DNA of 33,074 nucleotides from assembly GCA_002351795.1 (NCBI GenBank), contig DEHG01000106.1, positions 1 to 33,074 of the forward strand. Reading direction: 5' to 3'. Positions 19,601 through 23,753 of this stretch are shown in pieces; within the stretch, counting starts at the first letter, position 1, and the number at the start of each line of letters is the position of its first letter. This DNA comes from Ruminococcaceae bacterium UBA2806. Its GTDB lineage: Bacteria; Bacillota; Clostridia; Oscillospirales; Acutalibacteraceae. A program made the translations under genes and the position numbers. The notes below the pieces were generated by a model. That model searched no databases, had not been told where the DNA came from, and worked only from the letters and a program-made list of their open reading frames with translations.

Positions 19601-21259
19601 ATGGTAAATTTTGGAGTAGATTTCGGCAGTACCTATACGCTGGTATCACATTACCGAAGTGACAGAAATATATCGGAGGCGCTAAGCCTTGACGGAATAA
19701 GTCCTTACATTCCGTCGGTGGTTTCCTACAATACAAGGAAAAATGAATATAAATATGGTAAATCGGCAAAAAATCTCACGGGAAATAAAAATGTTATAAT
19801 TTTCAAGGCTTTCAAAATGCTTCTTAATGAACAGATGAGCGAGGAAAACCTCAGAAAAAGAAATTATGATCCTGAGAATACTCCCGAAAAGATCGCTTCA
19901 TTCTTTCTTGAAAAGGTGCTCAAAAGCGCCCTTGCAAAAACGGGCGACGATCATATCGGAAGGCTTGTCATAGGTGTGCCGGAGGTATGGGGACAAAGTC
20001 TGAATACATTTGACGGAAGGACTGCCCTGAGCAGGATATGCAGATCATTTGATTTTGTAGATAAGGCTGAGGTAGTAAGCGAGCCTGCCGCTGCGAGCGC
20101 TTTTTTTGCATATAATTATAAGATCATAAGCAAAAAAAACTTTGACGGAAGAGTTCTTCTTATAGATTATGGCGGAGGTACTCTTGATATCACTCTTACA
20201 AGGGTCGTTTCAAAGGGCGACAGCATGGAGGTCAAGGTAGAAAAGCGTGACGGCGCAGGAGAGAATATTGATAAAGAGATAGGCAATGCCGGCATAAGAT
20301 ATATGGAAAAGGTCGTGGAATGTGCGATCAGAAGATCCGGACTTTTTGAAGATACAGATAAGATAGAATATGACGGAAGCTTTCTTCGTGCGGTGGATGA
20401 GCTTGAGGAAGCGCTGATGAGCGATGCCGAAACGGTTGAGGATACATTCAAGGAGCTTGAATTCACGCCTGATGCGCTTGAAGATGAAGAGCTTTTAGAG
20501 CTTGATTATAAGGATGAATGCGTTATTGTAACATATAAGCATCTGAAGGATGTTTATGATGAGATAATATCCGGAGTTCTCAAGGAAAAGCTTGAAGCTG
20601 TTACAGCAGATACGGATACCTATGAGGATAATTTTAAGATCGGTATAGTCGGCGGCTTTGGCAATTTCTATTTAGTAAAAAAACAGATATTTGATATGTT
20701 CAGCATAAGCTCAAAGGATGAAAGGACCGAGGGCATAATAGTAAACAGTGAGGACAGAGAAAGAGCAATTTCCCTTGGAGCGTCTCTTTTGGCTGACGGT
20801 CTTATTTCCATACGCAAAACAGCGGAATTTTCGATAGGTATATATGCATTCAGTGCGGATAATACCATAGCAAAATATTATGCGATAAAATATCGTCAGG
20901 AGCTGGAATATGACAAGATATACTATGCTACTGATGCAAAGGGAAACGACGTTCCGTATTATGTGCCGAATGGTACAATAGATAAATTTCTGGTCAATTT
21001 CAGTGATAATGAAGATGATGCATTCGGCGCAAATCCGAAGGCGGAGCTTCTTGAAAAGCTGAAAAATCTTGTAGATAATGAAATGATGATGGCAACGGTA
21101 GGATTTTCAATTGATCCTACAGAGTCAATAACGATCCATATTTTTGATTATGAATGGGAAACAGGCAAGAGAAGTGAAAAGCCGGTAAAAAGTATCAGAC
21201 TTTCCACAATAAAATCAATGTTTGATGTAGTAGACCTGAACAGCGGAGGTGAAAGCTGA
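19601..21259 (+). CDS. Non-canonical Hsp70/DnaK-like (actin-fold) ATPase
   Basis: ATG at 19601 after GGGGAG. Phosphate-1 GVDFGSTYT, connect-1 SEPAAASAFFAY, phosphate-2 LLIDYGGGTLDITL, adenosine motif IVGGFGNFYLV. The beta-rich C-terminal about 170 aa is unlike the canonical DnaK substrate-binding domain and lid. Confidence 0.8.
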   Translation: MVNFGVDFGSTYTLVSHYRSDRNISEALSLDGISPYIPSVVSYNTRKNEYKYGKSAKNLTGNKNVIIFKAFKMLLNEQMSEENLRKRNYDPENTPEKIASFFLEKVLKSALAKTGDDHIGRLVIGVPEVWGQSLNTFDGRTALSRICRSFDFVDKAEVVSEPAAASAFFAYNYKIISKKNFDGRVLLIDYGGGTLDITLTRVVSKGDSMEVKVEKRDGAGENIDKEIGNAGIRYMEKVVECAIRRSGLFEDTDKIEYDGSFLRAVDELEEALMSDAETVEDTFKELEFTPDALEDEELLELDYKDECVIVTYKHLKDVYDEIISGVLKEKLEAVTADTDTYEDNFKIGIVGGFGNFYLVKKQIFDMFSISSKDERTEGIIVNSEDRERAISLGASLLADGLISIRKTAEFSIGIYAFSADNTIAKYYAIKYRQELEYDKIYYATDAKGNDVPYYVPNGTIDKFLVNFSDNEDDAFGANPKAELLEKLKNLVDNEMMMATVGFSIDPTESITIHIFDYEWETGKRSEKPVKSIRLSTIKSMFDVVDLNSGGES

Positions 21260-23268
21260 TGGATTTTCAGAGGACAAGCAGAACTCTGCGTACACTTGAA
21301 AAAAAAGATGATCTTACCCTTGAAGAAACAATGGGCATAATGACAGATATTCTTGCGGATGTTCAGGCTGTAATGGGGGTATCTCCCGATAAGCTTGATA
21401 CGGGAGATCTCAGGGCTGCGGTAACAGGGCTTTCTATGATCGGCAGGACTTTGCTTCAGGTCAAAAACACAAAATCCGATGAATTCGGAACGGCAGCCGA
21501 CAGAAAGAAGCGTCTTGATAAGATATATGACGAGGTAGAAAGCCTGTGCAATGAAACAGATAATGCAGGGGAACAGATAGAGGAACTGTCATCAAAGCAG
21601 GCAGAGCTTGAAAGTAAAAAGGCGGAGCTTGAAAAAAAGATGGATGAGGTACATTCCAAGGAACAAAGCTGTAAAAGTATGGAGGATGAAATACGCCGTC
21701 TTTCGGAAGTGGATATGGAAAAGCTCGATATTGAAAAGCGTGATATCATGAAAAAGCTTAATGATGCAAAGGAACGCTTCAATGACGAGTATAATGAAGT
21801 TGAAAGGCTGAAAGAAATATCCCGTATGCTTGAAAATGATATAGGAGATAAGACCTCGGAAGCCGACAGGCTTAAAGATGAGATCGAAAAGAAAAGAAGC
21901 AGTCTTAATGAATACGAATCAGTCTGTGTTGAATATGAAAAGAAAATAGAAAAGCTTATGGAATCGGCTGACAGTTCAAAGATACGGGCTGAGGAGCTTA
22001 AATCTCAGTATGAAAAAACACAGAACCGTATTGAAGAACTGTCCGGTGAAGAGCTTCCGGAGCTTGCTGAAAGGCTTGGAAAGATAAAATCACAGCTTAA
22101 AGCGCTGAATGATGAAAAAGAAAGCGTTATTGCCCGTATCCGGGAAAAAGAAAAGGAAAACGATCAGATAAGATCCGATATTGAGGAAAGAAAAAGAGCT
22201 GCCGAGGAGGAAACTGCCCGGAATAAGGAGATATGCGATCAGCTTGAAACAGATATATCCAATATGACAATAGAAAGAGAAAATCTGAAAAAGCGGATAG
22301 ATGAGCTGAATACTCAGATGGCGGATATTGAAAAGGAGCTAAGGGAGCTTAAAGTGCAGCTAAAGGCAAATGAGGATCTTTCACAGAATCACAGGGAGGA
22401 AATTGCCAGATACAGGGATATAACTATCCCTGCTTCAACATTGACATTGAGAAGAAGAGAACAGGCGCTTGATGAATATGCTTCAAGAAACAATGAACTG
22501 AAAATACAGATATCGGATCATGATGAAAAGATAAAAGAATATGAATCCGAGCTGCAAAAGCAGAATGAAAAGCTTGAAAAGCTCGGTCAGCAGAGAGACG
22601 GGCTTTCAGCTGAAATTGAAGAAAACAAACAAAAGCTTGCCGAAATAGGTCAGAGGATAGGAAATCTTTCCGATGAACGTCAGAAGATGATGGCGGATAT
22701 TGCCAGCAAGGAAGAACAGCTCGGAATGAGCGATATTTCAGCGCTGAAAAACAAGTATGACGATGTTTGCAGTCAGCTTAAAGAGGCTATAGATCAATCT
22801 GAAAAGCTTAATGCTGATATTAACGGTAAAAATGAGGAGCTTTCAGGTGTAAATGCTAAGAATAAGGAATTGCAGGATCGTATGCATGAGCTGTCAAAGC
22901 TGATAGACGAGGCAAAGGAAAAAAATGCTTCTCTTGAAAAAAGCCGTCAGGAGATCACATCTCATAAAGAAGCAGCTGAGAAAAAGAACAGGGAATTGAA
23001 GGAGCTGCTGTCAGCTCTTAATTCTCCTGAAATTCAGTCTGAACTGAAAAGATGTGAATGTGAGATAGAGGTAATGCAGGACGCTGTTGATAAGCTTTTC
23101 CCCGATGCAGGATTTGCATATCTCAGTCTTTTCGAGAAAAAAGATGAAGCAGAACGCAAGCGCAGGTATTTCAAGGAGGAAATAGCTAAAATACGTCAGA
23201 GGCTGGAATCCTATAAGAATGAATACAGACAGCTTACCAGAGCAATAGAAACGGGAGTGAGAAACTGA
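21259..23268 (+). CDS. 669-aa long coiled-coil protein (E/K/L-rich), no NTPase motifs
   Basis: About 100-aa N-terminal non-coiled region, then uninterrupted heptad-like E/K/L/R-rich sequence. The start overlaps the Hsp70-like stop (TGATG) and GGAGGTG lies upstream. Confidence 0.75.
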   Translation: MDFQRTSRTLRTLEKKDDLTLEETMGIMTDILADVQAVMGVSPDKLDTGDLRAAVTGLSMIGRTLLQVKNTKSDEFGTAADRKKRLDKIYDEVESLCNETDNAGEQIEELSSKQAELESKKAELEKKMDEVHSKEQSCKSMEDEIRRLSEVDMEKLDIEKRDIMKKLNDAKERFNDEYNEVERLKEISRMLENDIGDKTSEADRLKDEIEKKRSSLNEYESVCVEYEKKIEKLMESADSSKIRAEELKSQYEKTQNRIEELSGEELPELAERLGKIKSQLKALNDEKESVIARIREKEKENDQIRSDIEERKRAAEEETARNKEICDQLETDISNMTIERENLKKRIDELNTQMADIEKELRELKVQLKANEDLSQNHREEIARYRDITIPASTLTLRRREQALDEYASRNNELKIQISDHDEKIKEYESELQKQNEKLEKLGQQRDGLSAEIEENKQKLAEIGQRIGNLSDERQKMMADIASKEEQLGMSDISALKNKYDDVCSQLKEAIDQSEKLNADINGKNEELSGVNAKNKELQDRMHELSKLIDEAKEKNASLEKSRQEITSHKEAAEKKNRELKELLSALNSPEIQSELKRCECEIEVMQDAVDKLFPDAGFAYLSLFEKKDEAERKRRYFKEEIAKIRQRLESYKNEYRQLTRAIETGVRN

Positions 23269-23753
23269 TGAAATGCAAGTTTTGCGGGAGCAATGTTCCC
23301 GGAGGAGAGATACGCTGTGAGGTATGCGGATTTACTCATGTTAATTTTACGGACGGAGACAGCTCCGGCGCACTTGAGAAGATGATCGAAAAGTATAAAA
23401 AAAGCAAGCTCGGAGGTATCAGTATTGATCTTATAAGTCACAGATATGTTATCGAAAACGGCGAATTCAAGGATTATCATACCGAATCCGTAAAGATAGC
23501 AGATGCGGTTGAGCTTGTGCCTGATAAGATAGTATGGCTGAAAAAAAGCTTTTACGGATCGGAAAGCGACAAAACGATAGTTGTTGAGGTCTGCGTCGGG
23601 AAAAATGAAAAGACCTATTACGATTTTTCATTTAATATAAAAAAGACAGATGATCTTAATATAGGCGTAAAGATGGTAAACGGTCTGAAGGCAAGGATAG
23701 CTGTCGGCAATGAGGAAAGCTATGTTTTATCGGAGGAATTTGATATTTGCTGA
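23268..23753 (+). CDS. Zinc-ribbon protein with a beta-rich C-terminal domain; unknown function
   Basis: 161 aa. N-terminal CKFCGSNVPGGEIRCEVCG (CxxC-x10-CxxC). TGATG overlap with the coiled-coil gene. Confidence 0.65.
   Translation: MKCKFCGSNVPGGEIRCEVCGFTHVNFTDGDSSGALEKMIEKYKKSKLGGISIDLISHRYVIENGEFKDYHTESVKIADAVELVPDKIVWLKKSFYGSESDKTIVVEVCVGKNEKTYYDFSFNIKKTDDLNIGVKMVNGLKARIAVGNEESYVLSEEFDIC

Follow-up and report, generated by a model that had tools for sequence, protein, structure and literature searches.

Contig DEHG01000106.1 of Ruminococcaceae bacterium UBA2806 (assembly GCA_002351795.1) was analyzed from position 1 to 33,074 of its forward strand, and this whole stretch of 33,074 nucleotides is referred to below as the window. 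Its plus strand contains, at positions 17852-28827, nine reading frames in the same orientation with short gaps or overlaps between them. This report is mainly concerned with three consecutive members of this operon: a gene for an Hsp70-like protein (19601-21259, 552 residues; ORF 19583/19601-21259), a gene for a coiled-coil protein, here called the rod (21259-23268, 669 residues, consisting of an N-terminal domain, a heptad rod and a C-terminal region), and a gene for a zinc-ribbon protein (23268-23753, 161 residues, consisting of a ribbon, a helix and a beta sandwich). The Hsp70-like gene starts with the ATG at 19601, which has a GGGGAG Shine-Dalgarno sequence ahead of it. The stop codon of each of the first two genes overlaps the start codon of the following one in a TGATG motif (21257-21261 and 23266-23270), in both cases with a GGAGG-like site ahead. 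The three genes would represent an Hsp70 machine with unprecedented partners and no lid; the trio matches no system found in the literature, in which no description of an Hsp70/coiled-coil/zinc-ribbon combination was encountered.

Sequence-level family recognition of the Hsp70-like protein was limited to its nucleotide-binding domain (19601-20806, residues about 1-402), Pfam HSP70 (PF00012) matching residues 10-407 with 33 bits against a cut-off of 20.6. An earlier interpretation of this DNA, made without database searches and hereafter called the sequence-only reading, had listed four nucleotide-binding motifs of the Hsp70/actin fold, and an alignment with relatives bears this out: DFGST, SEPAAAS, DYGGGTLD and VGGFGN are all present and are invariant in 28 relatives that are 41-85% identical. 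The residues shared by all 28 sequences are D7, F8, G9, S10, T11, K72, E161, D189, Y190, G191-G193, T194, D196 and V350-F353. Comparison with DnaK of relatives by hhalign gave a probability of 98% (E = 2e-13, 358 columns) and equated D7, K72, E161, D189, T194 and D196 with DnaK D8, K70, E171, D194, T199 and D201, the adenosine motif being matched as well. Because the catalytic residues are invariant and equivalent to those of DnaK, the enzyme looks active and is predicted to be a catalytically competent ATPase.

The remainder of the protein (20807-21259, residues about 403-552) comprises a linker and a substrate-binding beta domain. The hhalign match to DnaK crosses the domain boundary through the linker and the first strand (up to query residue 418 and DnaK residue 376), pairing IRKTAEFSIGIY of the Hsp70-like protein with DnaK LLDVTPLSLGLET, which is the hydrophobic linker and the first strand of the substrate-binding domain. 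Under relaxed settings GFSIDPTESITIHI was paired with the hallmark DnaK strand (S/T)FDIDANGIVHV, and the C-terminal 150 residues aligned with the DnaK substrate-binding domain collinearly over 121 columns, a match that is weak when taken by itself (P = 0.028). The AlphaFold model, built on the alignment, has a predicted local distance difference test score (pLDDT) of 87 and a predicted template modelling score (pTM) of 0.85. Its best fold matches in the PDB, as ranked by Foldseek, were DnaK and BiP structures, either complete or with truncated lid, in the docked state with ATP (E = 2e-23, about 590 columns, query-normalised TM-score (TMq) 0.63-0.67), lid-truncated BiP being the best target-normalised match (TMt 0.70-0.71), and undocked ADP-state structures fitted poorly with a root-mean-square deviation (rmsd) of about 10-25 Å. 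All of the top 50 fold matches were Hsp70 or Hsp110 proteins, in alignments that extended across linker and beta domain. Neither a helical lid nor a tail is present, because the chain stops about 12 residues past the last beta strand. It ends in ...NSGGES and, as the sequence-only reading had stated, has no EEVD-like end. The same reading had described the C-terminus as a short beta-rich domain in place of the DnaK substrate-binding domain and lid. The absence of the lid stands, whereas linker, strands and fold all speak against a beta domain foreign to Hsp70. According to the model, the C-terminal part is an Hsp70 substrate-binding beta domain that has diverged but is joined by the usual linker, and only the lid is missing.

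The Hsp70-like protein is clearly set apart from the housekeeping members of its superfamily. It scored 36.6 bits with the DnaK equivalog TIGR02350 (cut-off 822.55) and 35.5 bits with the HscA equivalog TIGR01991 (cut-off 708.55), and it is about 15% identical to solved Hsp70s. The source genome has a separate dnaK, the N-terminal part of which lies at the end of contig C66 and the C-terminal part at the end of contig C50, a split that suggests a break in the assembly rather than loss of the gene. A DnaK match was present in all 20 relatives searched, and 15 of the 21 genomes exceeded the curated cut-off, the rest containing fragments. Judged by sequence, the protein is a dedicated, non-housekeeping Hsp70 paralogue, in agreement with the sequence-only reading, which had proposed a dedicated non-canonical Hsp70.

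The family is rare and patchily distributed, and it is restricted to Clostridia of the gut and rumen. The paralogue (547-562 residues) was found in five of 13 genomes of the genus, in none of eight other genera of the order and in two of 399 genomes sampled across the class, and 154 loci were detected among 185,579 species genomes. Eighty of these loci, mostly from rumen or gut metagenome-assembled genomes (MAGs), were fetched and are cited by numbers with the prefix L; all linkage counts given below rest on them. Wherever their titles name a taxon it belongs to the Clostridia (Ruminococcus, Lachnospiraceae, Oscillospiraceae, Acutalibacteraceae, Blautia, Faecousia and others), and a few are titled only "uncultured bacterium". 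At least one carrier, Blautia intestinihominis CLA-AA-H95 (L055), is cultured. At least 649 relatives are contained in the protein collection, annotated, where named, as "Hsp70 family protein" or "hypothetical protein"; no relatives were found in collections of phages, plasmids and viral contigs.

In the zinc-ribbon protein, the four cysteines C3, C6, C17 and C20 (CxxC-x10-CxxC) as well as W90 and G133 are invariant in 27 orthologues, nine of which are matched by Pfam Zn_Ribbon_1. In its AlphaFold model (pLDDT 91.5) the ribbon is followed by a helix (residues 32-48) and a beta sandwich of eight strands (residues 52-154). When this model was compared with the PDB, Hsp70 substrate-binding domains made up nearly all of the top 50 matches, and the top four in the BFVD viral library were Hsp70 proteins of giant viruses and a closterovirus. 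On the basis of these models, the sandwich may tentatively be regarded as substrate-binding-domain-like. Its derivation as a paralogue of the C-terminal domain of the Hsp70-like protein was considered and rejected, since hhalign gave one out-of-register hairpin; the likeness is retained tentatively for its fold. A profile search of 1.84 billion representative proteins returned 625 clusters of the zinc-ribbon protein at 50% identity. No fusions were seen, because the best 150 of the 625 clusters are all stand-alone proteins of 148-189 residues. Hep1/Zim17 is a small four-cysteine zinc-ribbon escort dedicated to one mitochondrial Hsp70. The protein described here differs from it in having an additional helix and a 110-residue beta sandwich, in being bacterial and operon-encoded and in lacking zf-DNL (PF05180), which matched neither the window's protein nor any of the 27 orthologues.

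The rod consists of an N-terminal domain of about 90 residues that starts with MxFxRT, a heptad region and a C-terminal region of about 70 residues. Both ends are conserved in 50 orthologues, among which the total length varies from 240 to 1066 residues. Profile searches of the PDB returned no relative of either terminal part. Autocorrelation analysis revealed heptad periodicity (z = 5-10 versus shuffles) and, in long rods, a strong second period of 99-113 residues. This period was 105 residues in L042 (z = 25), 106 in L019 (z = 21), 105 in L059 and L062 (z = 13-18) and 99 in L025 (z = 14) as well as in the window's protein (z = 5.6), and the prolines of the rod repeat at the same spacing. Self-BLAST of the rod returned no repeats. 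Because of the strong 99-113-residue period and the proline spacing, the longest rods are considered to contain modules of about 15 heptads in tandem, some of them duplicated recently. Like SMC, Rad50 and MukB, the rod combines long heptad stretches with conserved N- and C-terminal regions; it differs from them in that none of the 50 orthologues has a Walker A motif. Its matches to SMC, Rad50, LmuB and JetC models cover the interior and not the ends of these models and lie far below the curated cut-offs where such exist, which confirms the earlier exclusion of an SMC or Rad50 protein. The sequence-only reading had speculated about a scaffold, a ruler or a GrpE-like exchange factor. A modular rod of variable length lends indirect support to the first two, and nothing was found to support the third. 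As a separate observation, the longest rods (L042, L019, L059, L062 and L025) carry very recent tandem duplications of 99-106 residues, the gene growing and shrinking quickly by modules of about 15 heptads.

Gene linkage was analyzed by running hidden Markov models (HMMs) of each operon protein on all reading frames of the 80 loci, and a locus was regarded as fully covered if its sequence reached 3.7 kb or more upstream and 8 kb or more downstream of the Hsp70-like gene, which was the case for 50 loci spread over several families of Clostridia. Among these, the gene preceding the Hsp70-like gene in the window (g1) was detected in 49, usually directly upstream of the Hsp70-like gene, the coiled-coil N-terminal domain in 48, the zinc-ribbon protein in 47, the genes for the helical proteins g6 and g7 in 48 each and the AAA ATPase gene in 48, the latter at a distance of 4-8 kb downstream of the Hsp70-like gene. 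The order g1, Hsp70, coiled coil, zinc ribbon, g6, g7 and AAA was preserved in 36 of the 50. Both TGATG overlaps noted in the sequence-only reading are exact. The coiled-coil/zinc-ribbon junction overlaps in 40 of 49 loci and the Hsp70/coiled-coil junction in 21 of 49, the remaining gaps at the latter being no longer than 63 nucleotides. The expectation that homologous loci would encode the same partners is thus borne out, whereas the proposed three-protein sub-module cannot be maintained as a separable unit: the trio is part of a fixed set of seven core genes, or eight with a degenerate AAA paralogue (AAA').

Departures from this arrangement were seen in several loci. In Blautia intestinihominis (L055) the order is Hsp70, g1, coiled coil, zinc ribbon and onward, and in L046 it is g1, coiled coil, g6, g7, AAA, HerA, Hsp70 and zinc ribbon, a relative order also found in L061 and L078, neither of which is fully covered. 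The Hsp70-like and zinc-ribbon genes are adjacent or nearly so in the permuted or reduced loci L037, L038, L046, L061 and L063, and the pair is kept in L038 and L063, where most or all other genes of the set are missing. Since these two genes stay together even in permuted loci, they represent the tightest unit. A minority of loci carries an additional ATPase of the HerA/FtsK type, which is unrelated to g1 and whose Walker A motif is intact (GTMGTGKT; Pfam DUF87, TrwB_AAD_bind); it is encoded directly upstream of the Hsp70-like gene in the four variant loci L046, L063, L072 and L075 and downstream of AAA in L039 and L074.

Three of the variant loci contained further genes of note. In a Lachnospiraceae MAG (L063:458-11566), AAA', a HerA-like ATPase, the Hsp70-like gene and the zinc-ribbon gene follow each other in this order and are succeeded by a TerY-P-like signalling set (a Ser/Thr kinase, a zinc-ribbon protein, a vWA protein, a PP2C phosphatase, a second kinase and a MORN-repeat protein); no coiled-coil, g6 or g7 gene was detected there. 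In a Blautia MAG (L038:10001-18925), the Hsp70-like/zinc-ribbon pair is followed by two more ORFs with an Hsp70 fold, one a pair of 252 and 159 residues and the other a protein of 541 residues, which start with VIGVDFGT and NIGLDFGTTNS, and by a radical-SAM activase-like gene; g1, g6, g7 and AAA were all not found in this locus. L069 (6946-20350) encodes several proteins of 360-450 residues with similar N-terminal zinc ribbons (CPxCGxxN...CxxCGFDL) around its Hsp70-like gene, as well as a second Hsp70-like protein of 577 residues.

The remaining genes of the operon were examined for recognizable families. The first gene, g1 (17852-19579, plus strand), encodes a conserved partner of the trio with 575 residues. 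No Pfam or NCBIfam family was matched by the window's protein, none was common to its orthologues, and g1 has no Walker A motif. An origin of g1 as a decayed HerA-like ATPase was rejected, as hhalign of true g1 sequences against HerA-like proteins gave E = 0.32; the match of the g1 profile to DptH and the Pfam matches to DUF87 and TrwB probably came from outliers in the alignment that have an intact Walker A motif (GTMGTGKT). Downstream of the trio lies an optional membrane partner, a DUF3592 protein with two transmembrane segments (23780-24427, plus strand; Pfam DUF3592, 29.9 bits). A protein of 150-200 residues with two to four transmembrane segments takes this position in a subset of loci only.

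It is followed on the same strand by g6 (394 residues) and g7 (268 residues), two helical proteins that co-occur with the trio (24457-26465), and by a classical AAA ATPase (423 residues, 26529-27800) with its degenerate paralogue AAA' (336 residues; 26529-28827 for both genes). The proteins g6 and g7 start with MGLLFGKKK and MFGIFKSK, respectively, and both have acidic tails. These features recall ESCRT-III proteins. The sequence-only reading had called the downstream genes ESCRT-III-like, a designation that was not confirmed by any of the tests applied: none of 23 g6 and none of 23 g7 orthologues matched Snf7 (PF03357) or PspA_IM30 (PF04012) at E <= 0.01, profile searches of the PDB with g6 and g7 returned no ESCRT-III, PspA or Vipp1 chain, and a search of the genome with Snf7 and PspA HMMs found nothing in this operon. 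Apart from the closest relative, different lineages share 11-41% identity in g6 and g7, in contrast to the conserved ATPases. The AAA ATPase belongs to the classical clade (Pfam AAA, 108 bits), its best NCBIfam models being CDC48 (143 bits) and CdvC (116.8 bits against a cut-off of 650), both far below their cut-offs, and no Pfam MIT match was found at E <= 0.1. According to a recent review, a Vps4-like ATPase is apparently absent from bacteria (PMC7619361). Ravi et al. (2024) described transferred Vps4-like ATPases as well as PspA/Snf7-AAA associations in bacteria and made no mention of Hsp70 (PMC11237479).

Upstream of g1, an AT-rich gap of 386 base pairs (17466-17851, GC about 0.33) separates the operon from a divergent gene for a membrane-anchored protein of 622 residues. 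This gap is presumably the promoter region of the operon; a promoter scan did not single out a convincing site in it, and terminator-like sites were no commoner than in shuffled sequence. The operon is flanked by housekeeping genes (TsaD, a GNAT acetyltransferase, PolA, alanine racemase (Alr), Mrp/ParA and PrmA, with a HAD hydrolase upstream), and no integrase or neighbouring defence gene was recognized among the ten flanking proteins scanned. A lipoprotein gene at 28857-29978 was matched in one other locus only (L002) and not in the close locus L001, in which the operon is directly followed by genes for 180 and 219 residues, the sizes of the window's YbaK-like and SprT-like genes. Because L001 continues without a lipoprotein match, this gene probably lies outside the system, whose end would be at 28827. 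The use of within-genus synteny to define an empty site or the boundaries was abandoned, the genus being too divergent: the downstream YbaK-like gene was unmatched in five congeners, and the upstream HAD gene had an orthologue with 42-63% identity in four of these and a weak hit only in the fifth. Among the housekeeping genes upstream of the operon there is also a BspA-type leucine-rich-repeat protein of 537 residues (11421-13034; Pfam LRR_5, E = 6e-65).

The Hsp70-like protein shares with canonical Hsp70s (DnaK, BiP; PDB 4jn4, 4b9q, 7b7z, 5o4p) the nucleotide-binding motifs, the catalytic Lys, Glu, Asp and Thr residues, the linker and a sandwich with SLGI and FDID-type strands. It differs from them in having neither lid nor C-terminal tail, in the absence of a J-domain or GrpE gene nearby and in being encoded by an accessory gene whose companions in the operon are fixed. 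HscA-HscB-IscU and Ssz1-zuotin of the ribosome-associated complex (RAC) likewise exemplify Hsp70 paralogues devoted to one particular partner, and an Ssz1/RAC structure (PDB 6sr6) is among the fold matches of the model. In Ssz1, too, the substrate-binding domain is shortened, and the protein is part of a stable heterodimer. HscA, in contrast, keeps its lid and uses a J-protein, and no zuotin-like or HscB-like protein is encoded here. Helical-protein assemblies as targets of Hsp70 provide a working analogy: Hsc70 together with auxilin uncoats clathrin, and DnaK works with ClpB, in which case an AAA unfoldase is also involved. Chloroplast Hsp70 (cpHsc70-1/HSP70B) acts on VIPP1, a polymer of the ESCRT-III superfamily (PMC12798727). 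These systems, however, employ general Hsp70s with J-proteins, and no ESCRT-III, PspA or clathrin-like family was detected in the operon.

By description, there is also a likeness to the type III CoCoNuT systems, in which CnuD/CnuCD is an Hsp70-like protein with nucleotide- and substrate-binding domains that is encoded together with coiled-coil and zinc-ribbon parts, and some operons of which include CDC48-like (SpoVK family) and FtsK/HerA-like ATPases and TerY-P triads (Bell et al. 2024, PMC11090510). The trio shares with them an accessory Hsp70-like protein accompanied by coiled-coil and zinc-ribbon parts, and L063 its HerA-like ATPase and vWA/PP2C/kinase set. CnuD, on the other hand, has degenerate ATPase motifs and HEAT repeats, whereas the motifs are invariant here. 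McrB-type GTPase, McrC/DUF2357 and HEPN were not among the Pfam matches of the window's operon, nor was a CnuH-type helicase recognized there. PADLOC-DB 2.0 detected no complete defence system in the operon and returned generic matches only, namely of AAA to IetA and TRIP13, of the coiled coil to the interior of LmuB/JetC and of the Hsp70-like protein to PDC-M61B with 13 bits.

From these observations we propose that the trio is the chaperone arm of a fixed two-motor system, made up of g1, the lidless Hsp70, the rod, the zinc-ribbon protein, the two helical proteins, AAA and usually the degenerate AAA, in which a lidless Hsp70 clamp works with the AAA pair on self-assembling helical partners. 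We give this proposal an even chance of being right. Regulated by ATP, the Hsp70-like protein would clamp a single dedicated partner or a small number of them and most likely not unfolded proteins in general. The co-translated rod and zinc-ribbon protein, private partners that would be made in fixed proportion, are the best candidates for clamp partners or adaptors, and we infer that they form a physical complex with the clamp. The clamp might grip a defined segment of its partner, a candidate being the near-invariant N-terminal MxFxRT peptide of the rod. The zinc-ribbon protein could then pair with, cap or compete with the lidless clamp, the rod would connect the clamp unit to the helical proteins, and the AAA pair would unfold or recycle the latter. 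By analogy to Hsp70-ClpB/Hsp104, Hsc70-clathrin and Hsp70-VIPP1, the clamp may thereby control how the helical proteins assemble or come apart and exchange them with the AAA pair in one direction or the other. A more far-reaching version, in which a new kind of Hsp70 machine would operate without lid, J-protein or GrpE, with the clamp being completed in trans by the zinc-ribbon protein and spaced from a Cdc48/Vps4-like unfoldase by the rod, whose length varies widely among lineages, in part through internal repeats of about 105 residues, and in its boldest form would serve as a sensor of foreign (phage) polypeptide that triggers the operon, is speculative and, in our estimation, quite improbable.

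Several results weigh against the proposed two-motor system. No cognate J-domain protein or GrpE is encoded with it, as the ten reading frames from g1 to the lipoprotein gave no DnaJ or GrpE match in Pfam and NCBIfam; host DnaJ and GrpE may serve the Hsp70-like protein. Because g6 and g7 fit no recognizable family, polymer formation by these helical proteins is an assumption. The fold matches of the zinc-ribbon model were weak in both libraries (E between 5e-3 and 1e-1, TM about 0.3, rmsd about 6-17 Å, mostly 8-12), and the profile comparison of its sandwich with the C-terminus of the Hsp70-like protein yielded a single non-collinear hairpin (E = 1e-4 to 1e-3). Finally, the family is rare and patchy and its partners evolve fast, which suits a conflict system no less well than a cell-biological machine.

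Such a conflict or anti-phage system, in which the Hsp70-like and zinc-ribbon proteins would sense a foreign protein or RNA and the AAA pair together with the helical and membrane proteins would respond, is a rival with respect to the role of the operon and is compatible with a clamp; we consider it possible, though on the unlikely side. It would account for the sparse occurrence of the family (five of 13 genomes of the genus, two of 399 of the class, 154 loci in 185,579 genomes), for the divergence of g6 and g7 and the hypervariable length of the rod next to conserved ATPases, and for the addition of a HerA/FtsK-like ATPase in variant loci. The vWA/PP2C/kinase set of L063 resembles TerY-P triads linked to defence, and Hsp70-like domains with coiled-coil and zinc-ribbon parts have their precedent in CoCoNuT type III (PMC11090510). 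These points have to be set against the lack of a complete PADLOC system and of a recognizable nuclease, protease or toxin effector, the housekeeping flanks (TsaD, PolA, Alr, PrmA) without integrase or neighbouring defence genes, and the absence of relatives from the phage, plasmid and viral-contig collections, and the likeness to CoCoNuT is reduced by the missing McrB, McrC and HEPN and by ATPase motifs that are intact, unlike those of CnuD. Membrane remodelling of the bacterial ESCRT-III/Vps4 type, with the Hsp70 assembling or disassembling ESCRT-III-like polymers of g6 and g7 in the way that chloroplast Hsp70 handles VIPP1, is less favoured and appears unlikely to us. The assignment of the AAA ATPase to the classical clade with CdvC and CDC48 as best NCBIfam models, the DUF3592 membrane protein encoded in the operon and the similarity of the g6/g7 N-termini and acidic tails to ESCRT-III point in this direction, as does the VIPP1-Hsp70 precedent (PMC12798727), whereas the 23 g6 and 23 g7 orthologues without a Snf7 or PspA_IM30 match, the equally negative PDB-profile and genome HMM searches, the AAA ATPase without a Pfam MIT match and the many loci from which the membrane protein is missing argue against it.

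Two further explanations concern the nature of the ATPase itself. It shares its ATPase fold with actin, and coiled-coil partners are frequent for cytoskeletal proteins, so that a ParM/MreB/FtsA-type ATPase with the coiled coil as a filament-associated factor had to be considered; the exclusive occurrence of Hsp70 and Hsp110 among the top 50 folds, aligned through linker and beta domain, and the conservation of the Hsp70-specific K72, the linker and the SLGI and FDID-type strands render this very improbable. That it is merely an ordinary housekeeping DnaK or HscC beside unrelated genes would be compatible with the Pfam HSP70 score above the gathering threshold and is of negligible probability, given a score of 36.6 bits where DnaK requires 822, the low identity to solved Hsp70s, the missing lid, a separate DnaK in the genome, the absence of the gene from most relatives and neighbours that are fixed across families.

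The proposed chaperone arm of a two-motor system is of interest for the biology of Hsp70, one of the best-studied molecular machines, because the Hsp70 cycle is considered to depend on a lid, a J-protein and an exchange factor. In the present family all catalytic and allosteric elements are retained although the lid is lost, neither a J-protein nor an exchange factor is encoded in the operon, and the protein is committed to at least three partners of its own and to an AAA unfoldase. If these partners replace the missing parts, this would constitute a new way of running an Hsp70. Should the helical partners prove to be ESCRT-III-like, the system would bear on Vps4-coupled membrane remodelling in bacteria, and if it is immune in function, it would bear on chaperones as immune sensors. 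Its presence in the cultured Blautia intestinihominis CLA-AA-H95 renders the system accessible to genetic tests.

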